From: an uncultured Lewinella sp.
GTDB taxonomy: Bacteria > Bacteroidota > Bacteroidia > Chitinophagales > Saprospiraceae
Assembly (NCBI GenBank): GCA_937873655.1
Contig: CALMYQ010000096.1
Coordinates: 26,439 to 90,438 of the forward strand
Direction: 5' to 3'
DNA: 64,000 nucleotides
Shown here piece by piece: positions 5,325-61,363 of the stretch (its first letter is position 1; each line of letters begins with the position of its first letter). Both the position numbers and the translations under genes were made by a program. The notes below the pieces were generated by a model. It was not told the DNA's origin. It ran no database searches and was given only the letters and a program-made list of their open reading frames with translations.

Positions 5325-5440
5325 CCGGCGCATCCCCGAATTTGGTTATCCGCAAGACCTTTTTCCACGCCGGCTTGTTAAATAACAATATGCCCCGCAG
5401 GAGGTCGTTATCTTTGCAGTTCAAATTACGGGTATTGAAT

Positions 5441-22602: not shown

Positions 22603-22811
22603 CCACAAAAGTCACAAAAGAAAACAAAAGCGATTGGTCCTGAATCCCGGCGGGATTCAGGACCAATTTAAACTTTTGTGGCCTTTTGTTTCTTTTGTGG
22701 TTTACAATAAAATCAATGGTACTCAGGATGTTCGTGCTTCTCGGTTGTTTTCCTGAAATTCCCTTGGGAAAGGCAAACAAAAAATGGCCATATTCCTACC
22801 TTTTTTATTGC
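22603..22811. repeat. MITE-like ~210-bp element, copy A: 98-bp palindromic core plus 111-bp tail
   Basis: The core CCACAAAAGTCACAAAAGAAAACAAAAGCGATTGGTCCTGAATCCCG/CGGGATTCAGGACCAAT...CTTTTGTTTCTTTTGTGG (22603-22700) folds on itself. The tail 22701-22811 matches the reverse complement of 36904-37014, roughly three-quarters identical by eye. Confidence 0.8.
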
Positions 22812-22966
22812 TATTTGTCTGGCGGCCTGGATCAATGGACTACCTAAAATCAGAAATGGCACATGTTAAAAAGCAAATAAAATGTATTGTTTCCGGATGC
22901 ATTTCGCCACAATATATTCACTCAAACAAGATCCAGTTGCTCCTACCTCTCCAACATTTTCTTTTC

Positions 22967-28520: not shown

Positions 28521-28539
28521 CTTAAGATTCGCTTAAAAT
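28521..28539 (-). promoter_or_regulatory. CTTAAG direct-repeat box upstream of the RND pump gene (candidate OmpR-family response-regulator site)
   Basis: Plus strand CTTAAGATTCGCTTAAAAT, with half-sites 11 bp apart, 59 nt upstream of the ATG at 28461. It is 17/19 identical to the box at 30648-30666 and overlaps the sensor kinase stop codon. Confidence 0.4.
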
Positions 28540-47579: not shown

Positions 47580-47916
47580 GGTTATCCTGCTTTATTTTAT
47601 GATTACTTTTATCGATTGGCAATTTTGATAAAAAAGCGCTGTATCGGTGTCACAAATTTTGAATTTTTTGAAACTTTATTTGATCAATCGAGTATAAAAT
47701 TCTAAATTTACATCAGAATTCACGACAGATAATCTACCTCCACTTTAATTAGATCTCTCCCCTTCACCCAAGCACTTATCCCTTTTACTTGATTTACAGG
47801 CAAGTATCGTGTGCTACTTATCGCTTTGCTCCTTTTGCAGTCAAAAGGGATGGTATGCGCATGTTACTTTGAACTAAGGTACTAGTCAAATTATTGGTCA
47901 CATAGTTACAACCATC

Positions 47917-50900
47917 ATGAACAGAAACATTACGCTGTGTCTGCTCTTTTTGTATGCACTGTCATTTTCTCAAAAACTTAACGGTCAGACGATCTGGCCG
48001 GGCGACGTCAATAACAACGGCATCGTCAACGGGATAGATTTTGTTTACTGGGGTTATGCATTTGAACGCACCGGCCCGGCAAGGCCGACCACCAACGCAC
48101 AATGGGCAGCTCAGACCATGCCCGCTCCCTGGACGGACAATTTCCCTGGAAACACCAACTACGCCTACGGCGACTGCGACGGCAGCGGGACCATCAATAA
48201 AGATGACCTGAACAACGCCATCCGCCAGAATTTCTGGAAATCCCACGGCAACCCTTCTACGGACAACTGGCAGGTCGGAACGCCCAGCAATCCGCCGCTG
48301 ACCATCACGCCCGTGAACGCCACGGTAGCGCCGGGCGCCCGCATCGACCTGCAGGTAGACCTCGGTACAGCCGCCAAAAAGATCACCCGTTTCCTCGGGC
48401 TGGCCTTTAAGATCAGCTATAGCGGTCAATTCGTCAAAAGCGACGCACTGGCCTTTACACCGGCGTCCAACGCCTGGTACGACCCCTCCGGCGCCGTCTC
48501 CACCAGCTTCGCCTGGGGCTCCGCCGACGCGGGCAAAGGGGAAGTGGCCGTCGTCCGCGTCAATCACCAGAACGTAGCCGGATACGGCACCCTGGGTACC
48601 CTTTCCTTTTTCCTGAAAGACAATCCGGGCGTCAATTTACCGGCCGTTTTCCATGTCACAATCGAAGGGGCTTATCTGATAGACGCCTCCATGAACATCC
48701 TGCCCCTTTCTCTTGGAGAGGCGGATGTGATCATCTCCGGCAATTCCCCCACGCCCAACTGCCCCGAAACCGTCGATCCGGTTTGCGGCAGCAATGGCGT
48801 CACCTACCTGAACAGCTGTTATGCCGAAGCAGCCGGCGTGTATGATTATACGCCCGGCGTCTGCAATCCCGGCTGTGTGGATCCCGCTCAGATCGACCCG
48901 AACGCCATTTGCACCGCCGTTTACCAGCCTGTCTGCGGTTGCAACGGCGTGACGTATGCCAACGCCTGCGTAGCCGACGCCAACGGGGTGGTTTCCTATA
49001 CCCCCGGCCCCTGCAGCGCCAATAATGACTGCTACGATCCCAACCTCGTGACAACCAGTGCGGGGACAACGATCAATTATGCCGACGGCTCCCTCAACTT
49101 CAACTGCCCGACCGCCTACCAGCCGGTTTGCGGTTGCAACGGCGTCACCTATGCCAACGCCTGCGTGGCCGAAGCCAACGGGATCACCTTCTATACGCCG
49201 GGCGCCTGCAACAGCTCTTGCGTCGACCCCTGGTCGATGGACCCCACACCCAATTGCACGTATGAATACAACCCCGTTTGCGGTTGCAACGGCGTGACCT
49301 ATACCAACGCCTGCATGGCCGAAGCGGCCGGGGTACAGTCCTGGTCGACTGGCCCCTGCGGCAGCTCCTCGCCATGGTGCGCCGAAGCCGTCAGCATTCA
49401 ATGCGGCGACTTCCTGGCCTACGAAACCAATGCGGGCGCAGGCAACCAGATCTCTTCCTATCCGGGTTGCTCAAGCTACTCTTTCCTGGGCCCCGACAAG
49501 GTGTATGTCTTCAACAAGACCACACCCGGCGACCTGCAGATCGGGCTGGAGATCCTTACGCCCAACCTGGACCTGGACCTGTTCCTGCTGCAAGGCACCT
49601 GCAGCCAGCTGACCTGTCTGAAGGCCAGCACTACCAACAACTCCCAGACCGAGAATGAGGGGATCGTCCTGGAAGACGCCCCTATCGGCACCTATTATAT
49701 CGTAGTCGACGGCCAGTTCGCCAATTCGGTCGGCAATTACCGGCTGGAACTGAGCTGCGGATACCTGGTTTGCAGCAACGCGATCGAACTGGAATGCAAC
49801 CAACCGTTCAATTACAATAATATCAACGGCGACGACAACGTCTCCCTCTACGGTTGCGGCAACGTGTACAACGTGGAGAACAACGGCCCCGAGGTCGTTC
49901 ATACTTTCACGGTGACTACGCCGGGCCAGGTAAGCGTAAACCTCACCGGCCTTTCCGCCAACCTGGAATTGTTCCTGCTCAATTCCTGCGACCGGGGCGA
50001 TTGTCTGAAATACAGCCAGAATCCCGGTAACGCCAACGAATCCGTTTCTGCCTACCTCCAACCCGGTACCTACTATGTGGTGGTGGACGGTTTCAACGGC
50101 GCGACCAGCAATTATATCCTGACAGTCAATTGCAACAGCAGCTGCAACCTGGCGCTGACCAGCGTTACCTCTACGCCTTCAGGCTGCGGTGCTAATAATG
50201 GAACCATCACCGTTACCTCTTCGGGAGGAACACCCGGGTACCTGGTCAAGTACTGGGGGCCGGTATCCGGCAGTTTCACCACTTATGCCAACTCCTGCAC
50301 CATCTACAACCTGCCCCCGGGCACCTATACCGTCAAAAAGACCGACGCCAACGGCTGCTCGGATACGGAAACCGTGACCATCTATTCGACCGGAAACCTG
50401 ACCTTCTCCGCTACGCCGACCCCGGCAACCTGCGGCATGTCGGGCAAGATCTCGGTTTACGTCTCCAACGGGTCGCCGACGTACCATGTTTACGTTACCG
50501 GCCCGGTCAACAAGAATTTCACCAGCAGCAGCAACAGCTTCAACATCAATACGCTGCCTGCCGGCACTTATACCGTTACCATTGTCGATGCCAACGGATG
50601 CTCCGCCTCCAAGCAAGTAACGATCACCTCGCAAGGCAGCAATTTCACTTTTACCGCCACGCCCAACCCGGCCGGCTGCGGCCAGTACGGGTCGGTCCAT
50701 ATCGAGACCCATTACGGCGTAGGGCCTTATGTCGTGCTGGTTTCGGGCCCGGTCAGCGGCAGCGCCAATACGAGCAACAACAGCTTCAACATCATCAACC
50801 TGCCCGCCGGCACCTACCAGATCACCCTGGAGGACTCCAATTGGTGTTCTTATTCCAAGACCGTCACCATCGGACAGTCGGCATTGGAAATCACGACCTC

Positions 50901-53900
50901 GGTAAACAACGGCATCTGCGGCCAGAACGGCGGCATCAACGTGCATATCGCCAACGGCGTTCCGCAATACAACATCTCATGGAGCGGCCCGGTCAACGGA
51001 TCGACCACCACCTCCAACAGCAATTATCTCATTCCCAACCTGCCGTCGGGTACCTACCAGATCCAGGTAGAAGACGGCAACTGGTGTTCGAATTATCTTT
51101 CTGTAACCGTTTATAATTCCGGAGGGGGGCTGGAAACTGACGTTGTCCCCATCGACGCTTCATGCGGGCAACCGGGTTCGTTGTGGATCGACATCTATAA
51201 CGGCTCGGCGCCATATCACATCCAATGGTCCGGCCCTTCCTCCGGTTATACCAACACCAATAACAACGGTTTGGACATTCCCAACCTGCCCGCCGGCTGG
51301 TACACCGTCGTCATCACGGACGCCAACGGCTGTTCCAGTTCCTCCAATATACAGATCCACTCCGGCGGCAGCCTCGGGATCAGCGTATCGGGTACAAACG
51401 GCATGTGCAACTCGGCAGGTTCCATCTGGGTATCCATCAACGGCGGCCATCCCAACTACACCGTGTCCTGGACCGGGCCGGCCAGCGGGTCAACCACCGT
51501 CGGCGGCACCGGGTATGACATTACGGGGCTGCCATCCGGCACCTATACCGTGACAGTGACCGACAGCCAGGGCTGCTCGGCCTACAAAGTAGTGGTCCTG
51601 ACCAATTCCAGCGGCACCCTGACCATACAGCCGACCATTTATCCGGCAACCTGCGAAGCGCCCGGCCGCATATGGCTGGATGTCAGCGGCGGCGCCGGCG
51701 GCCCTTACCACATTACCTGGACCGGGCCGGTCAGCGGCAATGCCTATACCAATAATTCAGGCGGTTACAATATCGAAGGCACCCCCGGCGGATCGTATGT
51801 CATCACGGCCACCGACGAGAACGGGTGCACCGCCACCAAATACGTCAATGTACCCAACTACGAGAGTACGGTAGTGGTCTCGCTCACGGCGCATGACCAA
51901 TATTGCGCCCAGAACGGGATCATTTTCGTCAGCTTCTCCGGCGGAACAGGGCCTTTCACCGTCGCCTGGAGCGGCCCCTCCTCGGGTAACTTCTCCACCG
52001 ACAGCCACAGCACCATGATACAGAACCTGGTGGCGGGCACTTACCAGGTGGTGGTTACCGATTCCCACGGTTGCTACGGCATGAATACGATCCACCTGAA
52101 TGAAAACGGCGGACTGGATATCGACCTGACCGCCGAAAACGGCAATTGCGGTGAAAACGGCGCCGTCTGGGTCGACATCAACGGCGGCGAACCTTACTAT
52201 ACCATCAACTGGAACGGGGCGGCCAGCGGCTCCATTACCCTTTCCGGTACCGGCTTCAACATCACCAATGTCCCGGCCGGCAACCTGACGGTAACCGTCA
52301 CCGACGCCAACGGATGTTCAGATGTTGAGACCGTTTATGTCGGCTCCAGCGACCTCCAGGCCTGGATTGAGGCCCAGAACGGCGATTGCGAGGAATTGGG
52401 CTACATCTACGTCGGCATCATGGGCGGCTCTCCGGCTTATACGATTACCTGGACCGGCCCTGAAAGCGGCACCCACACCGGCAACAGCACGGTCTATACC
52501 ATCGAAAATCTGTGGGAAGGCGCCTACCACGTTGTAGCTACCGACGCCAACGGCTGCTCGATAGAAACCGATATTGACGTGTATAATGACGACAATATGG
52601 ACGTGGAACTGACCGCCGAACCCGGAAATTGCGGCGAAAACAACGCCATCTGGGTTGAGATCAGCGGCGGATCGCCTGACTATACCATTGCCTGGAACGG
52701 GCCTGCCGGCGGATCAGCCACAACCTCCGGATCAGGCTACAATATCACCAATCTGCCTTCCGGCAATTATACCGTGACGGTGACCAATGAGAACGGCTGC
52801 TCCGACATCTCTACCGTTTACGTAGAGAACGACGGCAACCTGGAAGCCTGGATCGAAGCCCAGAACGGCAGTTGCGAAGAACTGGGCTATATCTACGTCG
52901 GCATCGACGGCGGTTCGGCGCCCTATACCGTCACCTGGACGGGCCCCGAAAGCGGCACCCATACCGGCAACAGCCCGATCTATACCATTGAAGAGCTCTG
53001 GGAAGGCAACTACCACGTGGTCGTAACCGACGGCAACGGCTGTACCGTGGAGGCTTACGTCGATGTGTACAATGCCGATCAGATAGACGTCCAACTGACG
53101 CCCGAAGGCGGCGAATGCGGCGGATACGGCGCCATATGGGTTGAAATCGACGGCGGGTCTCCGGATTATACCATTTCCTGGAGCGGACCGGACGACGGCT
53201 CCGTCACCACCTCCGGAACCGGCTACAACATCACCAACCTGCCGGCCGGCCAATATTCGGTAACGGTAACCAATGAAAGCGGCTGTTCGGACGCAGCTTC
53301 CGTGACCCTGCAAAGCACCGGCAACCTGGAAGCCTGGATCGAAGGCCAGAACGGCGATTGCGAGGAACTGGGCTATATCTACGTCGGCATCGACGGCGGT
53401 TCGGCGCCTTATACCATCACCTGGACCGGGCCCGAAAGCGGTACGCATACCGGCAACAGCGCGGTTTATACCATTGAAGAGCTTTGGGAAGGGGATTACC
53501 ACGTCGTGGTGACGGATGGAAACGGCTGTACCACCGAAGGGGATGTCTCCGTTCATAATCAGGGCAGCCTCAATTTCGAACTGACCGGCGTTGACGGCGT
53601 TTGCGGCGGATACGGCAGCATCGTGGTCGATATCACTTCCGGCGGACCCAATTACACCATCGAATGGTGGGGCCCCGAAGAAGGATCCACCGTCACGGGC
53701 AACGATTCCTATACCATTTGGGAACTGACCCCGGGTACTTATACGGTCAAGGTAACGAACAGCATGGGCTGCATGGAAACCGAAACCGTGACCATCGGCA
53801 ATTCAGGATCCCTGGAGGCGGTGATCGAAACCCAGAACGGCAACTGCACCCAGCAGGGTTATATCTATGTCGAGGCTCTGGGCGGTTCACCGGCCTATAC

Positions 53901-56900
53901 CGTTACCTGGACCGGACCGGAAAGCGGCACCCATACCGGCAATAATCCGGTTTACGTCATCGAAGACCTGAATGCGGGCACCTATCATGTCGTCGTAACG
54001 GATGCCAGCGGTTGTACCGATGAATCCACGGTGACGATCTACAATTCAGCCAACAACCTGGATATAGCGGCGCTGGTCACCAACGGCAACTGCAGTGAAA
54101 ACGGCCATATCGTGGTCCAGATCAGCGGCGGTTCTCCGGCTTATACCGTTACCTGGACCGGGCCGGTCAGCGGTTCCACCACCGTTAACGCCACGAGTTA
54201 CACGCTGCAAAACCTGCCTTCCGGATTTTACTACATCGAAGTAACGGACAGCAACGGCTGCACGGATGATGCCAACGCCGAGATCAACAACGGCGCAGGC
54301 GATTTTTACGCCGAACTGACGGTACAAAACGGACCTTGCGGCGGCCTTGGATCCATCTGGATCGACTTCTTCAACGGCACGCCCGGCGGCGGGTATACCA
54401 TCACGTGGACCGGCCCCTCGTCCGGGTCGGTGGGCATCTCGAACGATTTTTACGATATTCCGAACCTGACGACCGGCGAATACACGGTTACCATCACCGA
54501 GGGCGGCGGCTGCGTCTATACGGAAACCGTCTGGATTACCACCATAGTGGATAACCTCACCGCAACCGCCGGTCCTTACGGCGGCAGCTGCGACAATCCG
54601 GGCGCGATCGAGTTCTCCATCGACGGCGGTACAACGCCTTATACGATCACGTGGCAGAGCACCAACTCGCAGGGCAGCATCCAGACGAACAACCCGAATT
54701 ACCTGCTGCAGCCGCTTCCGACCGGCATTTACAACATCACGGTCAGCGATGCCAACCAATGCTCGGACAATATCAGCCTGCAGTTGTTCAATACGCCGAA
54801 CACCCTGAGCCTGGTGACCTCGCCGATCAACCCGGGTTGCGGCACATACGGCGCCATCGGCATTTCCATCAGCGGAGCGCCCGGCCCGTACCAGATCGAA
54901 TGGACCGGCCCGGACAGCAATACCGGCGCTACGAATGAGACCAACTATACCATCAATAACCTGGAAGCGGGAACGTACAACATCACCGTAACCGCAGGTA
55001 ACGGCTGTACCCGGTCCACCTCCATTACGCTGGTACCGACTTCCCAGCCGCCGATTGCCCACTTCTCCACCACGATGAACGGCCTGTCGGTGCAAACCAA
55101 TAATACCAGCTCTCCGGGCACCTACTTCTGGTCGTTCGGCGACGGCTCAACCGCTACGTCGGCCAATCCGTCCTACACCTATTGGGATGCCGGCACCTAC
55201 CAGATCTGCCTTACCGTGAACAACGGTTGCAGCACCACCCAGTACTGTCAGTACGTGGTGGTCAGCGCTCCGGAGAGCTCGGTCATTCTGAATGTAGATG
55301 AAAAAACAGCCTCAAGCGGCAGCACAGTCAACGTACCGGTCATGATCGACCATTGCAGCTCGATCGTTTCCCTCTCCGGCAGCATTGCTGTAGAGAACGG
55401 CGCAGTCGCCGCTGTCACAGGCATCATGCCGGGGGCTATCCATCCGCAATACAATCCGGCGAACAAGACCTTCAATTTCTACGACAACGGCGGTGAAGGG
55501 TTGCCGGTGACGTCCAACGAGATCCTGTTCTACATCACGGTGCAGGTAACGGGCAGTCCGGGTCAATCCACCCACCTGCGCCTGACCAGTTCGCCGCTCA
55601 TCATCGAAGTGGGCAGCATGCAGAACGGCTCGGCGGTTGTCCTGCCCTATGTTTCGATCCAGGGTTCCGTCACCGTAGGTCAGTACGCTCAGATCGCGGG
55701 CGCCGTACAAACCTATTGGAACGAAGGTATCGAGGATGCTGAAGTGGTCATTGCCGGCGAGAACTACAATACGACCGAAATGACGGATGAGAACGGCGCA
55801 TACCACATGCCCGATCTGGAAATGGGGCACGAATACCAGGTTTCGGTCGACAAGGATTCCGACCCCGCCAACGGGTTGTCCACCTACGCGCTGTTTATCG
55901 GTCAGCGGTTCATCCTCGGCATGGAGCCGGCGCAGATCACTTCGCCGTATCAGGTCATCGCCGGTGACGCCAACTGCAGCGGTTCGTTTACCACCATCGA
56001 CCTGTTCCTGATCCAGCAGCTGATCATCGGCACTACCGACCATTTTGCGCAATGCCCCTCCTGGGTGTTCGTTTCGTCGGGTAACAACCAGATGCCGGCA
56101 GCCTTCGACGCTTACAACGTATTCCCGTACAACGATCACTATGAATACATGGTCGACCACGATATGCAGTCCGATTTTGTCGGCGTCAAGGTGGGCGACA
56201 TCCTGGGGCATGCCAACCCGCACAATTTCATCGATCCGGACGACAACGGCGAGCCGCGCAACACGGAAGCGCTCAGCCTGCAGGCTGTTGACCGCCATGT
56301 GGCAGCCGGCGAAACGATCGAAATTCCGGTGACGGCCGCCAATTTCAATGAGATCGTCAGTTACCAGTTCGGCGTGGAATTCGACCCGGCCAAACTGACC
56401 TTCTCCGGTTTTGCGGCTTCCGGCAACGACGCGTTGTCCAATGTAGTGGCCGGCCTGAATGCCGTGAACGAAGGCGGCGTCAAACTGAGCTGGTTCAGTC
56501 TCAACGGTCAGGGCGTAGCCGTTAACCCGGACGAAGTGCTGTTCACGCTCAGGTTCCAGGCAACCGAAGACCTGGAAAGCCTCGGAAATGCCGTCAGGAT
56601 CGGCTCCCATTTCATCGGGGTCGAAGCTTACGACGCGTCCGGCGACCTGAAAAATGTGACGCTCAACTGGAACAGCGCCCTGACCGGCACTGCCGCTGAA
56701 GCGCCCTTCGGTTACCGGTTGTACCAGAACACGCCCAACCCGTTCGCAGAGCGCTCCGTCATCCGCTTTGACCTGCCGAAAGGCATGTACGCGGAGCTGA
56801 TCATCCGCGACAACCTCGGAAGAGTTGTCAGGAATATCACGGGCAATTTCGCAGCGGGCCAGAACGCGATAGAGATCACGACCGACGAAATCGGCGGCGG

Positions 56901-56967
56901 CGTATTCCATTACACCCTGAAAACAGCGGATTTTTCCGCTACCAGGAGTATGGTTATTATGAAGTAA
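47917..56967 (+). CDS. Giant T9SS-secreted multidomain surface protein (3016 aa)
   Basis: Signal peptide, then two dockerin-like Ca-loop segments (GDVNNNGIVNGIDF; GDCDGSGTINKDDL). A cohesin-like domain follows, then 4 Kazal-type modules, 2 PPC-like domains, 20 SprB-type ~81-aa repeats, and a PKD domain (WSFGDGSTATSANPSYTYWDAGTY). Next come a second cohesin-like domain, a CarboxypepD_reg-like segment, a third dockerin-like loop (GDANCSGSFTTIDL), a third cohesin-like domain, and a type-A CTD. Confidence 0.9.
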   Translation: MNRNITLCLLFLYALSFSQKLNGQTIWPGDVNNNGIVNGIDFVYWGYAFERTGPARPTTNAQWAAQTMPAPWTDNFPGNTNYAYGDCDGSGTINKDDLNNAIRQNFWKSHGNPSTDNWQVGTPSNPPLTITPVNATVAPGARIDLQVDLGTAAKKITRFLGLAFKISYSGQFVKSDALAFTPASNAWYDPSGAVSTSFAWGSADAGKGEVAVVRVNHQNVAGYGTLGTLSFFLKDNPGVNLPAVFHVTIEGAYLIDASMNILPLSLGEADVIISGNSPTPNCPETVDPVCGSNGVTYLNSCYAEAAGVYDYTPGVCNPGCVDPAQIDPNAICTAVYQPVCGCNGVTYANACVADANGVVSYTPGPCSANNDCYDPNLVTTSAGTTINYADGSLNFNCPTAYQPVCGCNGVTYANACVAEANGITFYTPGACNSSCVDPWSMDPTPNCTYEYNPVCGCNGVTYTNACMAEAAGVQSWSTGPCGSSSPWCAEAVSIQCGDFLAYETNAGAGNQISSYPGCSSYSFLGPDKVYVFNKTTPGDLQIGLEILTPNLDLDLFLLQGTCSQLTCLKASTTNNSQTENEGIVLEDAPIGTYYIVVDGQFANSVGNYRLELSCGYLVCSNAIELECNQPFNYNNINGDDNVSLYGCGNVYNVENNGPEVVHTFTVTTPGQVSVNLTGLSANLELFLLNSCDRGDCLKYSQNPGNANESVSAYLQPGTYYVVVDGFNGATSNYILTVNCNSSCNLALTSVTSTPSGCGANNGTITVTSSGGTPGYLVKYWGPVSGSFTTYANSCTIYNLPPGTYTVKKTDANGCSDTETVTIYSTGNLTFSATPTPATCGMSGKISVYVSNGSPTYHVYVTGPVNKNFTSSSNSFNINTLPAGTYTVTIVDANGCSASKQVTITSQGSNFTFTATPNPAGCGQYGSVHIETHYGVGPYVVLVSGPVSGSANTSNNSFNIINLPAGTYQITLEDSNWCSYSKTVTIGQSALEITTSVNNGICGQNGGINVHIANGVPQYNISWSGPVNGSTTTSNSNYLIPNLPSGTYQIQVEDGNWCSNYLSVTVYNSGGGLETDVVPIDASCGQPGSLWIDIYNGSAPYHIQWSGPSSGYTNTNNNGLDIPNLPAGWYTVVITDANGCSSSSNIQIHSGGSLGISVSGTNGMCNSAGSIWVSINGGHPNYTVSWTGPASGSTTVGGTGYDITGLPSGTYTVTVTDSQGCSAYKVVVLTNSSGTLTIQPTIYPATCEAPGRIWLDVSGGAGGPYHITWTGPVSGNAYTNNSGGYNIEGTPGGSYVITATDENGCTATKYVNVPNYESTVVVSLTAHDQYCAQNGIIFVSFSGGTGPFTVAWSGPSSGNFSTDSHSTMIQNLVAGTYQVVVTDSHGCYGMNTIHLNENGGLDIDLTAENGNCGENGAVWVDINGGEPYYTINWNGAASGSITLSGTGFNITNVPAGNLTVTVTDANGCSDVETVYVGSSDLQAWIEAQNGDCEELGYIYVGIMGGSPAYTITWTGPESGTHTGNSTVYTIENLWEGAYHVVATDANGCSIETDIDVYNDDNMDVELTAEPGNCGENNAIWVEISGGSPDYTIAWNGPAGGSATTSGSGYNITNLPSGNYTVTVTNENGCSDISTVYVENDGNLEAWIEAQNGSCEELGYIYVGIDGGSAPYTVTWTGPESGTHTGNSPIYTIEELWEGNYHVVVTDGNGCTVEAYVDVYNADQIDVQLTPEGGECGGYGAIWVEIDGGSPDYTISWSGPDDGSVTTSGTGYNITNLPAGQYSVTVTNESGCSDAASVTLQSTGNLEAWIEGQNGDCEELGYIYVGIDGGSAPYTITWTGPESGTHTGNSAVYTIEELWEGDYHVVVTDGNGCTTEGDVSVHNQGSLNFELTGVDGVCGGYGSIVVDITSGGPNYTIEWWGPEEGSTVTGNDSYTIWELTPGTYTVKVTNSMGCMETETVTIGNSGSLEAVIETQNGNCTQQGYIYVEALGGSPAYTVTWTGPESGTHTGNNPVYVIEDLNAGTYHVVVTDASGCTDESTVTIYNSANNLDIAALVTNGNCSENGHIVVQISGGSPAYTVTWTGPVSGSTTVNATSYTLQNLPSGFYYIEVTDSNGCTDDANAEINNGAGDFYAELTVQNGPCGGLGSIWIDFFNGTPGGGYTITWTGPSSGSVGISNDFYDIPNLTTGEYTVTITEGGGCVYTETVWITTIVDNLTATAGPYGGSCDNPGAIEFSIDGGTTPYTITWQSTNSQGSIQTNNPNYLLQPLPTGIYNITVSDANQCSDNISLQLFNTPNTLSLVTSPINPGCGTYGAIGISISGAPGPYQIEWTGPDSNTGATNETNYTINNLEAGTYNITVTAGNGCTRSTSITLVPTSQPPIAHFSTTMNGLSVQTNNTSSPGTYFWSFGDGSTATSANPSYTYWDAGTYQICLTVNNGCSTTQYCQYVVVSAPESSVILNVDEKTASSGSTVNVPVMIDHCSSIVSLSGSIAVENGAVAAVTGIMPGAIHPQYNPANKTFNFYDNGGEGLPVTSNEILFYITVQVTGSPGQSTHLRLTSSPLIIEVGSMQNGSAVVLPYVSIQGSVTVGQYAQIAGAVQTYWNEGIEDAEVVIAGENYNTTEMTDENGAYHMPDLEMGHEYQVSVDKDSDPANGLSTYALFIGQRFILGMEPAQITSPYQVIAGDANCSGSFTTIDLFLIQQLIIGTTDHFAQCPSWVFVSSGNNQMPAAFDAYNVFPYNDHYEYMVDHDMQSDFVGVKVGDILGHANPHNFIDPDDNGEPRNTEALSLQAVDRHVAAGETIEIPVTAANFNEIVSYQFGVEFDPAKLTFSGFAASGNDALSNVVAGLNAVNEGGVKLSWFSLNGQGVAVNPDEVLFTLRFQATEDLESLGNAVRIGSHFIGVEAYDASGDLKNVTLNWNSALTGTAAEAPFGYRLYQNTPNPFAERSVIRFDLPKGMYAELIIRDNLGRVVRNITGNFAAGQNAIEITTDEIGGGVFHYTLKTADFSATRSMVIMK
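48757..49359 (+). other. Four tandem Kazal-type (serine protease inhibitor-like) modules within the giant protein (aa 281-481)
   Basis: CPETVDPVCGSNGVTYLNSCYAEAAGVYDYTPGVC; CTAVYQPVCGCNGVTYANACVADANGVVSYTPGPC; CPTAYQPVCGCNGVTYANACVAEANGITFYTPGAC; CTYEYNPVCGCNGVTYTNACMAEAAGVQSWSTGPC. The PVCG.NG.TY.N.C core is the Kazal signature. Confidence 0.75.
50149..55047 (+). repeat. Array of 20 SprB-type repeats (~81 aa each) within the giant protein (aa 745-2377)
   Basis: Each unit fits ..C(G)..G.I.V...GG.P.Y...W.GP.SG......Y.I.NLP.G.Y.V.V.D.NGC.......V. I counted 20 units by eye. Confidence 0.85.
56713..56964 (+). other. T9SS type-A C-terminal sorting domain (Por secretion tail) of the giant protein
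   Basis: YRLYQNTPNPFAERSVIRFDLPKGMYAELIIRDNLGRVVRNITG...GGGVFHYTLKTADFSATRSMVIMK matches the canonical L.QN.PNPF ... GvY.Y.l ... K.v pattern. Confidence 0.85.
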
Positions 56968-56995
56968 ATCGTTATTTACGGTAAAGGCAAATCGA

Positions 56996-57020: not shown

Positions 57021-57148
57021 ATTGCCTTCCGGTTTTCAGCATACTATGACAACACTTGCCAGGGGGATCTACATCTTCCTGGCCTGATTTTTTTCCCAAA
57101 AACCGTCCTGTTCCGGTATGGAACGGGCTTTTAACATTTTGCGATACT

Positions 57149-59047
57149 ATGAGAAAAAAGTGGTTGACTGTTTGGATCGCTTTTTTTACGGTGACATTCG
57201 GCCCAAACGCACAGACCCTTCAATTATCCCTGCCTGACCAGTCGGCGCCTGCAGGCCAGGTTGTCGACGTACCGATCTCCGTCACAGATTTCAATGAGAT
57301 CGTCAGCATGCAATTCTCCATTCAATGGGATACCGCCGTCATCCGGTACCAGTCGTTTGCGGAAGCCGACCTGGACAATGTTGCCATCGGCGACCTGCAG
57401 GCTCCGGGCGGCGTCCTGCGGCTTTCCTGGTTCGATCTGGACGGGGTGGGCAAAACCCTGCCCGACGGCAGCGCAGCCGTTATCCTGAAATACCTCGTGA
57501 CCGGCGAAATCGGCGCAACCACCCCCGTGACCATAACCGATTCGCCCCTGCCGGTGCAGATTTACCGGGCGGGCGCAGAGCCCGGATTATACGACCCGGT
57601 GGACCTGGAACAGGACCCGGGCTCCGTAACCGTCACGGGTCAGGTCACCGTCGGCATTGTCGTCGGCGATATCAGCTGCTTCGGGGCCGGCGACGGATTT
57701 GTCGACCTGACGGTTCAGGCACAGAGCGCATATACGCTGTCGTGGACAGGGCCGGACTTTAGCGCCGACACGCCGGACATTTCGGGGTTGTCGCCCGGGA
57801 CCTACCACCTGAACATTGCAGACGAAAACGGCGGCCCGCTCTATCAGCAGGATATAACCATACAGGAGCCCGCCCAGCTTTCCGCCCAAGCCGCAGTGAC
57901 CGGCCCCGATTGCTCAAGCCCGGGATCGGCATCCATCTCGGTGACCGGCGGGACAAGCCCTTATCAATTTGACCTGACCGGAACGCCGCAGCAAAGCGGC
58001 GCATTCACCGGGTTGCAACCGGGCGATTATGCGGTCACGGTGACCGATGCCCGCGAATGCACCGCATCGGTAAGCTTTACCGTTGGTGAAGGCGACTTGC
58101 CAGATGTGGATCTGGGCGGAACGCGCGCCTTGTGCCAGGGCATGCCGGTAGTCCTTTCTCCGGGTGCTTTTGCAGTTTATGCCTGGTCGACCGGGGCGGA
58201 TACGCCCGAAATTACCGTCAGCCAACCGGGCGCGTACAGCGTTACCGTCACCGACGAGGCGGGATGCCAGGCTTCGGACACGGTTACGGTTACCCAGGGC
58301 GAGCAGGTCGAACTGACGATCGAAAGCCAGTTTCACCTGATTTGCCCGGGCGATTCGATCCAGGTTGAGGTGGCCGGCGCCGACCAATACCGGTGGCTGG
58401 ATCCGGAGAGTACCCTGTCTGCAACGGACATTCCCGATCCGGTCGCTTTCCCGCAGGAAACCACCACCTATACCGTGATCGGCATGGGGCAGTGCAGCAG
58501 CGATACGATTGCCGTCAAGGTGAACGTATTCGAGAAAATGCCCGCCGGCGCCGCTCCGGATACGTGCGTGGCATACAATACGCCTGCAGAGTTGAGGGCA
58601 TTCGGCGGCGCGTTCTATGAATGGCAGCCCGCGCCGTTTCCCATCAGCGACCCGACCTCGCCCGTTGCGACCGTAGAGCCGTCCGACAGCGCCACCTATG
58701 TTGTCAGGATCACCGACGAAAACGGCTGCATCACCGTTGATTCCATGGTGGTATTGGTAGCCAACGACCCGCTTTCTTCCATCGTGGCCGTCAACATGAT
58801 CACCCCTAACGGCGACGGCAGGAACGACGTACTGGAGTTCCACGGCGCCCAGAAATTCGGGCCCAATTCCCTGAAGATCTACAACCGGTGGGGCAACCTG
58901 GTGTACCAAAAGGTGAACTACCAAAACGACGATGACCGGTTTGACGGCACGTTCAAAGGGCAACCCCTTCCCGCGGGCAATTATTACTATGTGTTGTCCT
59001 TCCGAACCGGCGAGATCAAGCAAAAACTGACCATTGTCCGGGAATAA
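57149..59047 (+). CDS. T9SS type-B CTD (gliding motility-associated C-terminal domain) protein with an N-terminal cohesin-like domain and SprB-type repeats
   Basis: Signal peptide MRKKWLTVWIAFFTVTFGPNAQ at the ATG at 57149. Cohesin-like module (VDVPISVTDFNEIVSMQFSIQWD...). SprB-type units (CFGAGDGFVDLTV...; CSSPGSASISVTGGTSPYQF...). C-terminus ITPNGDGRNDVLEF...IYNRWGNLVY...GNYYYVL is the type-B sorting domain. Confidence 0.85.
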   Translation: MRKKWLTVWIAFFTVTFGPNAQTLQLSLPDQSAPAGQVVDVPISVTDFNEIVSMQFSIQWDTAVIRYQSFAEADLDNVAIGDLQAPGGVLRLSWFDLDGVGKTLPDGSAAVILKYLVTGEIGATTPVTITDSPLPVQIYRAGAEPGLYDPVDLEQDPGSVTVTGQVTVGIVVGDISCFGAGDGFVDLTVQAQSAYTLSWTGPDFSADTPDISGLSPGTYHLNIADENGGPLYQQDITIQEPAQLSAQAAVTGPDCSSPGSASISVTGGTSPYQFDLTGTPQQSGAFTGLQPGDYAVTVTDARECTASVSFTVGEGDLPDVDLGGTRALCQGMPVVLSPGAFAVYAWSTGADTPEITVSQPGAYSVTVTDEAGCQASDTVTVTQGEQVELTIESQFHLICPGDSIQVEVAGADQYRWLDPESTLSATDIPDPVAFPQETTTYTVIGMGQCSSDTIAVKVNVFEKMPAGAAPDTCVAYNTPAELRAFGGAFYEWQPAPFPISDPTSPVATVEPSDSATYVVRITDENGCITVDSMVVLVANDPLSSIVAVNMITPNGDGRNDVLEFHGAQKFGPNSLKIYNRWGNLVYQKVNYQNDDDRFDGTFKGQPLPAGNYYYVLSFRTGEIKQKLTIVRE

Positions 59048-59063: not shown

Positions 59064-59999
59064 ATGACCATGAAAAAACTATACTGGATTTTTTTATTGT
59101 TCCCGCTGCTGTCCAACGCGCAGCAACTGCCGGAACGAAGCTCCTTCTACAGCAATTCCTTCATCTGGAATCCGGCGATGACCGGCCTGTGGGATTACTG
59201 GGAACTCGGCCTCACCTATCGCCAGGAATGGCTGGGCTTCGAAGATGCTCCGGTTACCGCCACGCTCAACGTACAGTACCCGTTCCCCAAGGAGCATATG
59301 AGCCTGGGGGGATTTTTCATGCACGACAACATCAACCCCATCGTGATGAACTCTTTCGGGTTCGCCTATGCCTACCGGGTTGATCTCGGCCGGCGCCGCA
59401 CCGACCTGTTGACCATCGGCCTGATGGGTACGCTCAACCATTTCTTCGTCGACGGCAAGGAGATCGTTGTGAACGACCAGGACGACCCGCTGGTCCCGAC
59501 AGGGGAGAACAATAAATTCGGCCCCAATGCGGGGGCCGGCATATTTTATACTTCGTATGGAAAAAGCGAGTTTGAAAAGGACCGTTTTTTTGCAGGCCTG
59601 GCCGTCACGCAATTATTGCCCGGCAATATCCGGCTCGACGAATTCGGCAGCGACGCCAGTTTGAAAAGGAACATTCACGGCAATGCCATCGTCGGTGCAA
59701 GGTTCGTCAACGAGAATACGTTTATCGAACCTTCCCTCTGGATCAATTACAGCGCCGTCAATCTGCTGGACATGAACCTGGGTGTCCGCTTCGAGCGGGA
59801 AGACGCGTTCTGGGCCGGGCTCACCTATTCGACGACCCAGACCATTTTTCTCCAAACCGGGCTGGCGATGAAAAACGGATTGGCCAAGGACGGCGTTCTG
59901 CGCATCGGCGCATTGGGGTCCTTCAACGTCGGAACATTTGGCAAAGCGAGGGGTCTGGGATTCGAATTCTACGGCGCGTACAGGTTCGGCGACCTATAG
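59064..59999 (+). CDS. PorP/SprF family T9SS outer-membrane protein
   Basis: Signal MTMKKLYWIFLLFPLLSNAQQ, then FYSNSFIWNPAMTG and YRQEWLGFEDAP, the conserved PorP/SprF N-terminal motifs. It sits directly downstream of a type-B CTD gene. The start could be 59064 or 59070. Confidence 0.85.
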   Translation: MTMKKLYWIFLLFPLLSNAQQLPERSSFYSNSFIWNPAMTGLWDYWELGLTYRQEWLGFEDAPVTATLNVQYPFPKEHMSLGGFFMHDNINPIVMNSFGFAYAYRVDLGRRRTDLLTIGLMGTLNHFFVDGKEIVVNDQDDPLVPTGENNKFGPNAGAGIFYTSYGKSEFEKDRFFAGLAVTQLLPGNIRLDEFGSDASLKRNIHGNAIVGARFVNENTFIEPSLWINYSAVNLLDMNLGVRFEREDAFWAGLTYSTTQTIFLQTGLAMKNGLAKDGVLRIGALGSFNVGTFGKARGLGFEFYGAYRFGDL

Positions 60000-61363
60000 G
60001 ACAGAGCCTTCGATTGAGCTTTCTTGTTGATGGTGAAATAAAAGGTCGATCCTTTTTTGAGGTCGGAATCGATCCAGATCTCACCCTCGTATTGGCTGAC
60101 AATTTTTTTGCAGGCTGCAAGGCCGATTCCAAGCCCTTCATATTCAATCCGGTTATGAAGCCGTTTGAACAAATCGAATATGGATTGCTGGTCCTCTTTC
60201 CGGATACCGATACCGTTATCGCTAACCCTGAAAAGCCAGTATTTTTTGCAATCCCGGCCTGAAATGGTGATGGAGGGCCGGTCGTTGACATTGTACTTGA
60301 TCCCGTTGGAGATCAGATTTTGAAAAATAATGCCGAGGTGATCGGGATCGCAATCTACGACATCGGGCATGGTTTCCAGGGTTATGTCGGCGTTTTTCTC
60401 CCGGATCAGGGTTTGGATATCCTTCAGTTTTTCGCGGATGACCAATTCGGGAAGCGCATTCCCGGTTTTGGTCCCGTCCTGGTCCAATTTGGCGAATTCA
60501 AGCAATTTCTGGATCAGATTTGACATGCGATACGTGCCCTCCATGGCAAACCGGATGTATTCCTTTCCTTCATTATCCAGGACCCTGTTGTAGCGCCGGT
60601 CGATCAAACGGACATAATTCCCGATCATCCTCAGGGGTTCCTGCAAATCGTGTGATGCCAGGTAGGCAAATTGTTCAAGGTCTCTGTTGGACCTGCGGAG
60701 CGTTTCCACAGATTTTTCCAGCAACAGGGTTTTCTCCTTCATCCGCTTTTCAAGCGACTCCTTCTGCCGCCGAAGGTCCCGGATCAGGGTCGTGATGGTC
60801 GAATTGCTGGACCTCAGTTCCCGGTCATACACCAGCATAAACCCCAGAAACAGGCCCATGCCCAGGAATCCTTTATAAAAATACAGGAAAACGGCATGCG
60901 GAATCGGAGCCGGGTTGAAATAGGGCGAAAGCAAAATGATCAGGGCGGATATCATGAACAAACCGCTGTAATACCAGACGACTTTCCTGCCTTTGAAGAT
61001 ATACAGGGAGATGATGAAAAAAGAAAGAACAATAAAGGCGCTGGTCTGTACGGCATGCCCCCAAAGGGTGTAAACACTGAACAAGGCGGCCGGACTGCTC
61101 AGGCCGATATGCCAGGCCGGTTCATTGTAGCCCAACCGGTTGATCCAGAAAATGAGGACCAGCACGCCGGCGCACGTCAGGTTCATAACAACAGAAGGTA
61201 CAGAGCCTGCCGCGACGTACACAAAATGACCGGCGGCGCACGTGCCGAGCATGGAGATGACCAGCACATTCAAAAGCCGGACGTTAAATCCGTCCACAGC
61301 CTTTTTTTGTTGGCCTAACCCCGAGGTTAATACCTTCTCCAACAATTCTTGTGTCTTGTCCAT
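59969..61363 (-). CDS. Membrane sensor histidine kinase (about 6 TM, HisKA, HATPase_c)
   Basis: H-box FAYLASHDLQEPLRMI, N-box NLISNGIKY, G-boxes DNGIGI and GLGIGLAACKK. It overlaps the 3' end of the PorP/SprF gene by 31 nt (convergent). Confidence 0.85.
   Translation of the reverse strand: MDKTQELLEKVLTSGLGQQKKAVDGFNVRLLNVLVISMLGTCAAGHFVYVAAGSVPSVVMNLTCAGVLVLIFWINRLGYNEPAWHIGLSSPAALFSVYTLWGHAVQTSAFIVLSFFIISLYIFKGRKVVWYYSGLFMISALIILLSPYFNPAPIPHAVFLYFYKGFLGMGLFLGFMLVYDRELRSSNSTITTLIRDLRRQKESLEKRMKEKTLLLEKSVETLRRSNRDLEQFAYLASHDLQEPLRMIGNYVRLIDRRYNRVLDNEGKEYIRFAMEGTYRMSNLIQKLLEFAKLDQDGTKTGNALPELVIREKLKDIQTLIREKNADITLETMPDVVDCDPDHLGIIFQNLISNGIKYNVNDRPSITISGRDCKKYWLFRVSDNGIGIRKEDQQSIFDLFKRLHNRIEYEGLGIGLAACKKIVSQYEGEIWIDSDLKKGSTFYFTINKKAQSKALSYRSPNLYAP

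Follow-up and report, generated by a model that had tools for sequence, protein, structure and literature searches.

The 64,000-nucleotide stretch of uncultured Lewinella sp. DNA that we analyzed (the window) encodes a giant protein that we interpret, at a probability of roughly 55%, as a T9SS-exported fibril that shows canonical-type serine-protease-binding modules and is jointed or anchored by Ca-dependent cohesin-dockerin contacts. From the N-terminus, it consists of a putative signal peptide, a dockerin, a cohesin, four Kazal modules, two PPC (pre-peptidase C-terminal) domains, and 20 SprB-type repeats, followed by a PKD domain, a second cohesin, a CarboxypepD_reg element, a second dockerin, a third cohesin, and a type-A T9SS C-terminal sorting domain (CTD; Table 1). 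An earlier note made from the sequence alone had proposed this domain map and the assignment as T9SS cargo, and Pfam/TIGR profiles, a repeat HMM, and Foldseek bear it out nearly module by module. The protein belongs to a conserved but unstudied family.

In the organization that we propose, the base on the cell side would comprise cohesin 2 and a pedestal cassette (the CarboxypepD_reg beta-sandwich, a dockerin, and cohesin 3) directly before the CTD. The rod of SprB-type Ig-like repeats and the PKD domain would form the middle, while the head would combine the two PPC domains, the four Kazal modules, and a second dockerin-cohesin dyad at the extreme N-terminus. Dockerin and cohesin modules would serve as Ca-dependent protein-protein joints, most likely with the next-door protein as external partner. 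This neighbor bears a paralogue of cohesin 3, and its type-B CTD together with the PorP/SprF protein encoded beside it would keep it on the outer membrane.

Table 1. Features of the giant gene, its surroundings, and the T9SS genes in the window (nucleotide positions of the window).
Feature	Position	Strand	Amino acids and details	Evidence
porU (C25-type T9SS sortase)	5342..9316	+		Peptidase_C25 330 bits
porV (T9SS shuttle protein)	9525..10751	+		PorV 183.5 bits
AT-rich non-coding region	47580..47916	+	presumed promoter region	34% GC
Putative Sec signal peptide	47917..47988	+	aa 1-24, MNRNITLCLLFLYALSFSQKLNGQ	n-h-c region read by eye from sequence
Dockerin 1	47989..48231	+	aa 25-105, two Ca-binding loops	Dockerin_1 profile, orthologue support
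Cohesin 1	48295..48735	+	aa 127-273, sequence-divergent	AF2 model and Foldseek
Kazal module 1	48760..48864	+	aa 282-316, P1 = E284, 4 Cys (without C1-C5 pair)	
Kazal module 2	48874..49014	+	aa 320-366, P1 = A334, 6 Cys, CGC framework	
Kazal module 3	49030..49209	+	aa 372-431, P1 = T399, 6 Cys, CGC framework	
Kazal module 4	49219..49359	+	aa 435-481, P1 = Y449, 6 Cys, CGC framework	
Two PPC domains	49378..50133	+	aa 488-739	PPC 54 bits, 2 stretches
Rod of 20 tandem SprB-type Ig-like repeats	50149..55047	+	aa 745-2377	repeat HMM
PKD domain	55048..55266	+	aa 2378-2450	PKD_4 58 bits
Cohesin 2	55282..55671	+	aa 2456-2585	weak profile score, family support
CarboxypepD_reg-like beta-sandwich	55684..55854	+	aa 2590-2646, first element of pre-CTD cassette	
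Dockerin 2	55858..56037	+	aa 2648-2707, three helices (AF2 model)	homology to threshold-passing dockerins
Conserved beta extension (CPSWVFV...NVFPY...FVGVKVGD)	56062..56190	+	3' of dockerin 2	
Cohesin 3	56269..56676	+	aa 2785-2920	Cohesin 46.7 bits
Type-A T9SS C-terminal sorting domain	56731..56967	+	aa 2939-3016 and stop codon	TIGR04183
Terminator-like hairpin and T-run	57058..57093	+	between giant and next gene	
Neighbor gene	57149..59047	+	632 aa from ATG 57149, signal peptide, 2-4 SprB-type repeats	
Neighbor N-terminal cohesin	57221-57544	+	paralogous to cohesin 3	
Neighbor type-B CTD (CHU_C)	58790-59020	+		CHU_C 78.6 bits
PorP/SprF-family outer-membrane protein	59064..59999	+	presumed anchor of the type-B CTD protein	PorP_SprF 150.4 bits

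Module assignments from head to base

The signal-peptide position is hydrophobic in all orthologues aligned. In dockerin 1, the two loops (D30-x-N32-x-N34-G35...D41 and D86-x-D88-G89-x-G91...D97) and the helices of the AF2 model display the duplicated F-hand pattern of dockerins (D1, N/D3, N/D5, G6, and D12 plus helix). Both Ca loops are canonical and, like the WPG-D start, invariant among orthologues; they are split by a conserved and unusually long insert of ~44 residues, with loop starts 55 residues apart. The Dockerin_1 (PF00404) score of the giant protein itself is 18.8 bits and thus under the cutoff of 22.9, while the same region matches Dockerin_1 in 11 of 15 orthologues (best 4.3e-8) and a PDB sequence search returned dockerins as its only matches. 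For cohesin 1, a Pfam scan gave no match; its AF2 model (pLDDT 87.9) retrieved cohesins as 50/50 of the top Foldseek PDB matches (best 5.8e-9, target TM up to 0.80). The nine-stranded jelly-roll cohesin fold is seen for cohesins 1 and 3 (models with pLDDT ~88, Foldseek), and the top Foldseek matches of cohesin 3 are likewise cohesins (4.8e-8).

The PPC pair, which follows the Kazal array, is the best-conserved part of the protein among orthologues (60-75% identity). The rod matches SprB (PF13573) at 43.8 bits against a cutoff of 28, and our custom HMM finds exactly 20 tandem domains in it (69-109 bits) of ~81 aa with two Cys each, of which repeats 9-16 alternate as a 486-nt super-unit of two repeats. 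If extended, rod and PKD domain together would measure an estimated 100 nm or so, by analogy with GhpA.

A single-sequence PDB search with the C-terminal 575 aa returned nothing, and profiles and models were needed to assign this part. Cohesin 2 alone reaches 18.6 bits and stays under the Cohesin (PF00963) cutoff of 24.1; family support comes from Cohesin matches in 12 of 13 orthologue C-termini, the PDB cohesin 2xdh (E = 0.014), and the cohesin of the neighbor protein (3e-8). Where the earlier note had seen a third dockerin-like loop, we find an entire, divergent dockerin at that location rather than a single loop. The first loop of this dockerin 2 is degenerate (NGLSTYAL, with D -> A at position 12) and the second is intact and canonical (D-A-N-C-S-G-S-F-T-T-I-D), so that the duplicated F-hand is retained in part, i.e., in the second loop only. 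For dockerin 2, the Pfam scan was negative in the giant protein and in all 13 orthologues; the module aligns with Dockerin_1 domains of the proteins P0069, P0070, P0139, and P0143 that occupy the same cassette position and score above threshold (24-30 bits), and it is the most conserved block of the C-terminus in the orthologue alignment. An invariant Cys of the beta extension that follows may pair with the Cys in the dockerin 2 Ca loop. Comparisons among the giant protein's own modules by hhalign were weak (doc1 versus doc3 E = 0.025; coh1 versus coh3 1.9e-4), too weak for calling the two dockerins internal paralogues. The type-A CTD (TIGR04183/PF18962) scores 52.7 bits with TIGR04183 (cutoff 23, aa 2939-3014).

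Kazal modules and the case for protease binding

The Kazal array (aa 282-481, nt 48760-49359) scores 93.1 bits with Kazal_1 (PF00050) in four stretches (cutoff 21) and 83 bits with Kazal_2 (PF07648; cutoff 22.8), and it matched 45 Kazal chains in the PDB, ovomucoid at 7e-12. The alignment with ovomucoid (OMTKY3) and LDTI spans the reactive loop, with Y449 of module 4 opposite Leu18 of the ovomucoid third domain. The six cysteines per module that the earlier note had expected are present in modules 2-4 in a non-classical arrangement, whereas module 1 has only four. In modules 2-4, the classical helix cysteine (C5) is absent and replaced by a Cys at C3+2 ("CGC"), and the sequence pattern of none of the four modules conforms to the classical six-Cys framework (1-5, 2-4, 3-6); module 3 additionally has a 24-aa insert between C1 and C2. 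All orthologues keep these patterns. The CGC framework is found in nearly all bacterial Kazal matches and in none with a named eukaryotic source, and Toxoplasma and butterfly matches retain the classical C5; it is typical of bacterial Kazals, a disulfide variant of a fold that has mostly been studied in eukaryotes. The claim that Kazal modules are uncommon in bacteria was overstated, since one scan found relatives in ~80 species-level genomes, mostly Bacteroidota, in which the joining of Kazal to Por_Secre_tail recurs in many database proteins. Literature searches for Kazal together with T9SS or Bacteroidota turned up incidental mentions only and no characterized protein.

Across 62 orthologous Kazal modules, P3 Cys, P4' Pro, P5' Val, the CG motif, the Asn of TYxNxC, and the last Cys are invariant and P2' Tyr is found in 43, i.e., the residues supporting a canonical loop (P3 Cys, P2' Tyr, P4' Pro, and the spacer Asn) are invariant or nearly so. 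Among the 35 columns, variability peaks at P1 (3.20 bits), where the six commonest residues are T (16 modules), D (9), A (7), Q (6), S (6), and F (4), and K/R almost never occur. Hypervariability of P1 is a known pattern for canonical inhibitors (Laskowski), and tandem arrays with differing P1 residues are typical of multi-headed inhibitors. Because the loop-shaping residues are kept while P1 varies freely, the Kazal modules most likely bind serine proteases, and inhibition is plausible judging from the sequence. Binding would follow the substrate-like "standard mechanism" and involve subtilisin-, chymotrypsin-, or elastase-like enzymes rather than trypsin-like ones, either to shield the fibril and the cell surface or to catch foreign proteases. 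Two observations speak against inhibition: many P1 residues of the family (E, A, T, and Y here) are weak in classical Kazal inhibitors, and module 1 lacks one disulfide while modules 2-4 have a non-classical cysteine framework.

The modules could instead be structural or ligand-binding, disulfide-rich elements as in follistatin, agrin, or SPARC that act as head spacers or in adhesion and not as inhibitors. Such a role would fit the frequent D/E/N/Q/P/G/T/S and rare K/R at P1, the four-cysteine module 1 and non-classical frameworks of the others, and the lack of a protease gene adjoining the locus, and an unconstrained surface loop would give P1 variability too. However, the canonical-loop residues (P3 Cys, P2' Tyr, P4' Pro, and the TYxNxC Asn) are conserved far beyond the needs of the fold, the nearest solved relatives (ovomucoid and LDTI) are true inhibitors, and different P1 residues stand in tandem as in multi-headed inhibitors. 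We regard a purely structural role as possible but on the whole unlikely.

Dockerin-cohesin dyads and the pre-CTD cassette

The CarboxypepD_reg-dockerin-cohesin-CTD cassette is shared with 538 protein clusters (E<=1e-30) that carry unrelated passengers, and in 120/125 diverse proteins its first three elements align as a single block whose end lies 80-132 aa before the C-terminus. A dyad of the Doc1-Coh1 type also directly precedes the CTD in P0036, P0039, P0046, P0048, P0050, and an Aureispira protein. Self- or hetero-assembly by cohesin and dockerin, as the earlier note had suggested, seems plausible from these modules, but the idea needs re-framing because the C-terminal pair is part of a generic pre-CTD cassette of hundreds of cargo families. 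Non-cellulosomal cohesins and dockerins have reportedly been covered by Peer et al. 2009.

The dyads may alternatively work in cis, with each dockerin permanently clasped to the adjacent cohesin as a rigid pedestal or cap. In that case they would form a structural element of general use ahead of the T9SS CTD that perhaps spaces the passenger from the CTD or attachment site, and not an intermolecular device. The occurrence of the cassette as one block on unrelated passengers argues for this, as do the Doc1-Coh1-type dyads directly before other CTDs and the fact that dockerin and cohesin always form an adjacent pair. Multi-domain AF2 models (pTM 0.85 and 0.83) hint that each dockerin may pack on its own cohesin, which would leave no free site. 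Furthermore, cassette carriers of the HYR family have no anchor pair within 10 kb in 3/3 genomes inspected, so the cassette does not generally need a neighbor protein; 1.27 Mb of loci mined for independent cassette carriers beside anchor pairs yielded too few cases. On the other hand, the inter-domain contact is read from pTM only, and pLDDT is low in the linker before cohesin 3. Permanent clasping would also leave unexplained why the giant family has a syntenic gene with cohesin and type-B CTD and why cohesin 2 has no adjacent dockerin. We consider it a tentative alternative to intermolecular joints and doubt that it is correct.

In the opposite direction, dyads beside the T9SS sorting domain could be a general, undescribed surface-organization device of Saprospiraceae and related Bacteroidota. 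Hundreds of cargo families would dock onto one another or onto cohesin proteins anchored by PorP, giving a non-cellulolytic, cellulosome-like coat. As the giant Kazal family has a dyad at both ends, it could bridge such coats (cell-cell or cell-prey), and its bacterial-specific "CGC" Kazal class would be displayed to trap foreign serine proteases. Taken in full, with coat, bridging, and protease trapping, this is rather speculative and improbable as a whole. No enzyme with a dockerin was found in the 64-kb window.

Neighboring genes and T9SS machinery

The earlier note had placed a cohesin in the next gene, and a profile match (34 bits) confirms it; this module shares 30% identity with cohesin 3 (E 1.5e-18; HMM 7.8e-22). 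The note missed that this gene encodes a type-B-CTD protein and is followed by its PorP/SprF partner, a known and often syntenic surface-anchoring pair. The two genes are 17 nt apart, and for type-B CTD proteins, binding to the PorP-like protein next to them has been described (PMC9143113). In at least 14 loci, the giant gene is succeeded by a gene with cohesin and CHU_C, and then by PorP/SprF wherever the locus reaches far enough (seven loci of one set and further loci), while the ~3.3 kb of downstream sequence of the Lewinellaceae loci L014 and L018 contain no anchor gene. Due to the terminator-like hairpin 3' of the giant gene, co-transcription with the neighbor pair is not assured. Upstream of the giant gene lie the 337 AT-rich bp that had been pointed out before (34% GC), in which neither a sigma-70-type nor a Bacteroidota -7 motif (TAnnTTTG) was found on the + strand. 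The Peptidase_C25 and PorV profiles also verify that porU and porV are encoded upstream in the same window, which thus holds T9SS machinery genes together with a PorP/SprF-family gene.

Could the locus be a gliding-motility system of the SprB/SprF kind, with the giant protein as a mobile adhesin carried over the cell surface? SprB, the gliding adhesin of Flavobacterium johnsoniae, is likewise a giant, repeat-rich T9SS surface protein with SprB repeats, of which the giant protein has 20; it is not known to carry any Kazal, PPC, cohesin, or dockerin module. The neighbor with its SprB repeats, type-B CTD, and adjacent PorP/SprF gene reproduces the arrangement of SprB and its PorP-like partner SprF (PMC9143113). 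The CTD of the giant protein itself is, however, type-A and not type-B, and around the locus the window showed none of the gld or spr motility genes, so that we find a gliding adhesin quite improbable.

Conservation and integrity of the gene

The giant ORF (47917..56967, + strand) starts with ATG and encodes 3016 aa with zero internal stops, and we read it as a real, intact gene for a surface protein that is predicted to be secreted. Colinear orthologues occur in ~20 Saprospiraceae/Lewinellaceae-type MAG species, and at least 16 clusters have the full architecture (2352-4242 aa), all named ones from Saprospiraceae-type MAGs. An assembly artefact or decaying gene, with collapsed repeats or separate genes fused into a chimera, deserves hardly any credence and was rejected. 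In its favor, repeat arrays are difficult to assemble, public orthologues include several split or partial ones, and repeat number differs between species. Against it, the frame is open for 9 kb, 11 complete orthologous ORFs (2782-3661 aa) from independent assemblies and at least 16 clusters share the same colinear module order, and the rod repeats, at only 65-79% DNA identity, are too divergent for collapse.

Comparison with known systems

The grappling hook GhpA of Aureispira comes from the same broad lineage and resembles the giant protein as a very large T9SS substrate with Ig-like repeats (with intramolecular disulfides in GhpA, two Cys each here), an N-terminal head (adhesive in GhpA), and a PorP homologue encoded downstream. 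GhpA differs in its 5,898 aa, its heptamers, and the PorP and PorE homologues directly after it, and the paper describing it mentions neither Kazal nor cohesin modules (bioRxiv 10.1101/2024.01.29.577165); at our locus, the giant gene and PorP/SprF are separated by the gene for another protein, which bears a cohesin. We also considered whether the giant protein is SprB or GhpA itself and rejected this.

Other FCB-group surface proteins have been linked to cohesin-dockerin pairing from sequence and modeling, partly between neighboring giant Ig-repeat genes: a T9SS-anchored scaffoldin inferred for Ca. Stygibacter (Cloacimonadota; PMC8542988) and the proposed pair Cag_2037/Cag_2038 of Chlorochromatium, which uses T1SS (bioRxiv 10.64898/2026.03.19.712371). 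These differ from the giant protein in taxa, passengers, and secretion routes, and neither study reports Kazal modules or a dockerin-cohesin cassette ahead of the CTD.

Like cellulosomal scaffoldins (CipA, ScaA/ScaB), the giant protein combines cohesins and dockerins in one polypeptide, its Ig-like beta-sandwich directly before a dockerin recalls their X-Doc dyad, the adjoining gene specifies a further cohesin protein that is presumably anchored to the cell, and its own fold matches are type I/II cohesins. Unlike in the cellulosome, no dockerin-bearing enzymes were identified here, and the predicted export is of the Bacteroidota T9SS type instead of Gram-positive SLH or sortase anchoring. The modules also deviate, with the long inter-loop insert in dockerin 1, the degenerate loop in dockerin 2, and 9-21% identity to solved cohesins in the listed matches. 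With canonical Kazal inhibitors (MEROPS I1: ovomucoid third domain, PSTI, LDTI, rhodniin), the Kazal modules have the loop scaffold C-x-P1-x-Y-x-P-V-C-G plus Asn, the tandem multi-headed array, and the hypervariable P1 in common; they differ in the missing C1-C5 disulfide of module 1, the CGC framework of modules 2-4, and a P1 that is rarely a classical specificity residue.

Implications for T9SS surface biology

The retention and arrangement of T9SS cargos on the cell surface are understood in only two cases: Porphyromonas attaches them to A-LPS, and type-B cargos are anchored by PorP-like proteins. A pre-CTD dockerin-cohesin cassette with a conserved PorP-anchored cohesin neighbor would give a third, testable retention principle and would extend cohesin-dockerin biology well beyond cellulolytic anaerobes. 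With the Kazal array, a fold otherwise studied almost only in eukaryotes gains a bacterial disulfide variant; if active, the array would be the first Kazal inhibitor displayed on a bacterial surface. In water, in sludge, and on algal surfaces, Saprospiraceae abound as degraders of protein and as predators, and a protease-binding fibril would therefore bear on how they withstand their own and others' proteases.

Architecture of the giant predicted T9SS cargo protein

The giant gene is a single ORF without interruption that begins with an ATG codon, and we scanned its product with Pfam and NCBIfam models both as a whole and in segments, applying curated thresholds (see table). All four Kazal modules, both PPC domains and the PKD domain that an earlier note had read from the sequence passed these thresholds, as did its type-A CTD, and its coordinates were right throughout to within a few codons. 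It had also counted 20 SprB repeats, and a repeat HMM built from the giant protein returned exactly this number of SprB-type units, each ca. 81 aa long and scoring 69-109 bits. Repeats 9-16 alternate, two repeats making up a super-unit of 486 nt (65-79% identical at the DNA level), and this super-period points to an array that grew by duplicating repeat pairs. The stretch directly before the gene is indeed AT-rich, with 34% GC compared to ca. 58% within the gene, and the processing genes porU and porV are both present in the window as described. The C-terminus of PorU is matched by the CTD HMM of the giant family (E 5.5e-5) and also by FlgD_ig, which is consistent with PorU bearing its own retained CTD-like domain.

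Features of the window and of the giant protein (positions in the window's own numbering)
Feature	Position (strand)	Size or number	Evidence
porU	5342..9316		present
porV	9525..10751		present
ORF	22784..24085 (+)	433 aa	no Pfam match at E<=1e-3 or 1e-4
AcrB-type RND pump with OEP	24133..28461 (-)	1441 aa, single ORF	ACR_tran 905 bits (aa 4-1033); OEP 73.7 bits (aa 1271-1440)
Histidine kinase	28533..29906 (-)
ORF	35167..36807 (+)	546 aa	no Pfam match at E<=1e-3 or 1e-4
ORF	39527..42871 (+)	1114 aa	no Pfam match at E<=1e-3 or 1e-4
ORF	42911..43852 (+)	313 aa	no Pfam match at E<=1e-3 or 1e-4
AT-rich region before giant gene		337 bp	GC content
Giant gene	47917..56967 (+)	3016 aa	ORF
Kazal modules, giant protein		4	Kazal_1 93 bits, above curated threshold
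PPC domains, giant protein		2	54 bits, above curated threshold
SprB repeats, giant protein			above curated threshold (Pfam/NCBIfam)
486-nt super-period in SprB-type array	52360..53942	3.3 copies	73-79% identity
PKD domain, giant protein		1	58 bits, above curated threshold
Cohesin above threshold, giant protein		1	46.7 bits
Type-A T9SS sorting domain, giant protein			TIGR04183 52.7 bits, cutoff 23
Inverted repeat just past giant stop codon	~56995-57030	12 bp, perfect; 1-nt loop	GAGTCATCCGGA / TCCGGATGACTC
Terminator-like hairpin between giant gene and neighbour	~57058-57093		T-run
Neighbour	57149..59047 (+)	632 aa	Cohesin 34 bits; CHU_C 78.6 bits
PorP/SprF gene	17 nt past neighbour		150 bits
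Histidine kinase	59969..61363 (-)
ORF	61617..63200 (-)	526 aa	no Pfam match at E<=1e-3 or 1e-4

Elsewhere in the window, the pump ORF contains an entire AcrB-type pump plus an outer-membrane factor domain; it is an unusual fusion of the two, or else a stop or frameshift was missed. The cohesin, dockerin and CTD modules of the giant family are absent from all five ORFs that are silent in Pfam.

Weakly scoring dockerins and cohesins

Four modules were sub-threshold or silent in the window sequence, and we examined these through orthologue alignments and structural models. The N-terminal dockerin, noted earlier as two dockerin-like loops, scored 18.8 bits against a cutoff of 22.9, and Dockerin_1 matches it in 11 of 15 orthologues (best 4.3e-8). 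Both Ca loops are canonical and invariant in the orthologue alignment (D30-x-N32-x-N34-G35...D41 and D86...G89-x-G91...D97), with an invariant W-P-G ahead of them and an unusually long conserved insert in between, and the PDB sequence matches of this segment are dockerins only.

The three cohesin-like domains are likewise supported. Cohesin 1 (aa 127-273) has no Pfam match; in an AlphaFold2 (AF2) model of aa 24-285 (pLDDT 87.9, pTM 0.85), its top Foldseek matches in the PDB were cohesins in 50/50 cases (best 5.8e-9, target TM up to 0.80). Cohesin 2 reaches 18.6 bits by itself and is supported by Cohesin matches in 12 of 13 orthologue C-termini, while its profile matches the archaeal cohesin 2xdh (E=0.014) and BLAST finds similarity to the neighbour's cohesin (3e-8). 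For cohesin 3, the modelled fold confirms the above-threshold match.

What had been described as a third dockerin-like loop lies within the best-conserved C-terminal block, ANGLSTYALFIGQRFILG...GDANC(S/N)GxFTTLDLFxIQQLIIG...CPSWVFV, for which Pfam matches were found in 0 of 13 orthologues. This block aligns with above-threshold Dockerin_1 domains of four more distant relatives (P0069 with 28.8 bits, P0070 with 30.3 bits, P0139 and P0143), and its AF2 model (pLDDT 88.4, pTM 0.83) shows the CarboxypepD_reg beta-sandwich followed by the three helices expected of a dockerin. From this alignment and the modelled helices, the dockerin homology stands, but the feature is predicted to be more than a loop, i.e., a whole divergent dockerin with a degenerate first and an intact second Ca loop.

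Kazal modules with a bacterial cysteine framework

Six Cys per Kazal module had been anticipated, which is true by count for modules 2-4 but not for module 1, which has only four and misses the C1-C5 pair. Even in modules 2-4 the pattern is non-classical: the helix C5 is absent and a Cys is found two residues past C3 ('PVCGCNGVTY'). The pattern is the same in every orthologue. Among all database matches, this 'CGC' framework occurs in nearly all bacterial proteins and in none with a named eukaryotic source, of which Toxoplasma and butterfly matches retain the classical C5.

Standard-mechanism inhibitors are recognized by a conserved loop scaffold combined with a free P1 residue, as known from Laskowski's work. 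Across 62 orthologous Kazal modules (35 columns), the P3 Cys, P4' Pro, P5' Val, C3-Gly, Thr, supporting Asn of TYxNxC, C4 and last Cys are invariant, the Tyr of TYxNxC is nearly so (59/62), and P2' is Tyr in 43. P1 is the most variable of all columns (3.20 bits), most commonly T (16), D (9), A (7), Q (6), S (6) or F (4) and almost never K/R. The window protein carries E284, A334, T399 and Y449 at this position, the last aligned to Leu18 of ovomucoid third domain. The array would most likely bind serine proteases other than trypsin and may inhibit them, but many of the P1 residues found are weak ones.

A recurrent dockerin-cohesin dyad next to the CTD

In the databases, the closest proteins are fragments with ca. 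53% identity from MAGs of Bacteroidota and Lewinella, which carry the annotation 'Kazal-type serine protease inhibitor domain-containing protein' or 'hypothetical'. Scanning one genome per species, we found the whole N-terminal architecture in ca. 20 Saprospiraceae/Lewinellaceae-type MAGs, with all modules colinear across loci. The source genome of the window is absent from this set, and by the distribution its organism would be a Saprospiraceae-like Bacteroidota. Because the repeat number varies, orthologous ORFs that are complete range from 2782 to 3661 aa. Of the clusters defined at 50% identity, at least 16 have the complete architecture (2352-4242 aa).

The cassette directly before the CTD is far more widespread. 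Using aa 2583-2935 (CarboxypepD_reg, dockerin and cohesin 3, CTD excluded) as a query against 1.84 billion representative proteins, we obtained 8,648 matches at E<=1e-3, 5,606 at E<=1e-10 and 538 at E<=1e-30. Local re-scoring of the 141 top matches found a near-complete cassette as a single block in 125, of which 120 have its end 80-132 residues (median 94) from the C-terminus in proteins of 416-5,918 aa. When ten carriers were scanned with Pfam, eight had Por_Secre_tail, and the passengers were unrelated: HYR, SprB with PKD, Kazal with PPC, an InhA-like MAM domain, and five cohesins. One large carrier family comprises HYR-domain proteins of ca. 1,270 aa (540 members in one search), mostly annotated as Saprospiraceae 'T9SS type A sorting domain-containing protein', and no gene for PorP or for a cohesin/type-B-CTD protein lies within 10 kb of three members on long contigs. 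Dyads resembling the N-terminal dockerin and cohesin 1 also directly precede the CTD in five other proteins (P0036, P0039, P0046, P0048 and P0050) and in an Aureispira MAG protein.

Together, these results mark the dyad as a recurrent unit adjoining the T9SS CTD. The giant family is unusual in having a second, N-terminal dyad as well as one more cohesin. The anchor pair of neighbour and PorP/SprF gene is tied specifically to this family and not to the cassette generally.

Two loci deserve separate mention. The Aureispira sp. protein (locus L034:8789-11383, 864 aa) is a compact relative with SprB-like Cys-rich repeats and one CGC Kazal module; here the dyad precedes the CTD and is not N-terminal. 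Of the four type-A-CTD or cassette-bearing cargos that locus L084:6574-23672 (ENA ctg317152) encodes within ca. 17 kb, two are HYR proteins, one is a DUF4331/CLIPPER protein and one is a DUF7619 protein that has CarboxypepD_reg, cohesin and CTD, so one genome can cluster several cassette-bearing cargos.

A conserved putative anchor pair downstream

The cohesin-like module previously noticed in the next gene is a Pfam match at the N-terminus of the neighbour, following a signal peptide and followed by 2-4 SprB-type repeats and a CHU_C type-B CTD. This cohesin and cohesin 3 are close paralogues (30% identity, E 1.5e-18; family HMM 7.8e-22). The giant gene precedes such a cohesin/type-B-CTD gene in at least 14 loci, PorP/SprF comes next in every locus that reaches far enough, and a class-V aminotransferase gene often lies upstream. 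Type-B CTD proteins are held on the surface by a PorP-like protein encoded alongside (PMC9143113). The two hairpins after the giant stop codon suggest that the giant gene may be transcribed apart from the anchor pair.

One of the window's two histidine-kinase genes (59969..61363) lies directly downstream of the PorP/SprF gene in convergent orientation. In some loci of Chitinophaga and Bacteroidetes (L058, L064 and L065), similar kinases sit next to Kazal genes that are unrelated.

Proposed surface assembly

Type-A CTDs direct export through the T9SS and are removed by PorU, and cohesin-dockerin pairs form high-affinity, Ca-dependent joints. With architecture, fold assignments, conservation and synteny established here, we propose that the giant protein is a T9SS fibrillar surface protein using such joints. 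Once exported, it would form an extended fibril of perhaps ca. 100 nm, scaled from GhpA (5,898 aa, 240 nm; bioRxiv 10.1101/2024.01.29.577165), with the CTD end as its base and the head of two PPC domains, four Kazal modules, cohesin and dockerin facing outward. Most likely, one of its dockerins would engage the PorP-anchored cohesin of the neighbour.

In the main rival model, each dockerin would hold its adjacent cohesin in cis and so form a structural pedestal. This is favoured by the two modules always sitting side by side, by the high pTM of the multi-domain AF2 models and by the HYR carriers without anchor genes. Identity with SprB was rejected because SprB ends in a type-B CTD and is not known to carry any of the head modules, and identity with GhpA was rejected on comparison with its description.

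Every part of the giant protein comes from a known family, and its orthologues already carry labels from public pipelines that name one domain or another. In the literature searched, we found no description of Kazal modules on T9SS cargo or of a pre-CTD dockerin-cohesin cassette. Two cases come closest: a CTD-bearing scaffoldin inferred for Cloacimonadota (PMC8542988) and, in a green sulfur bacterium, two neighbouring giant proteins with Ig repeats that were modelled as a cohesin-dockerin pair (bioRxiv 10.64898/2026.03.19.712371). The interest of the giant protein lies mainly in its generic cassette and conserved anchor neighbour, which make the hypothesis of surface assembly directly testable.
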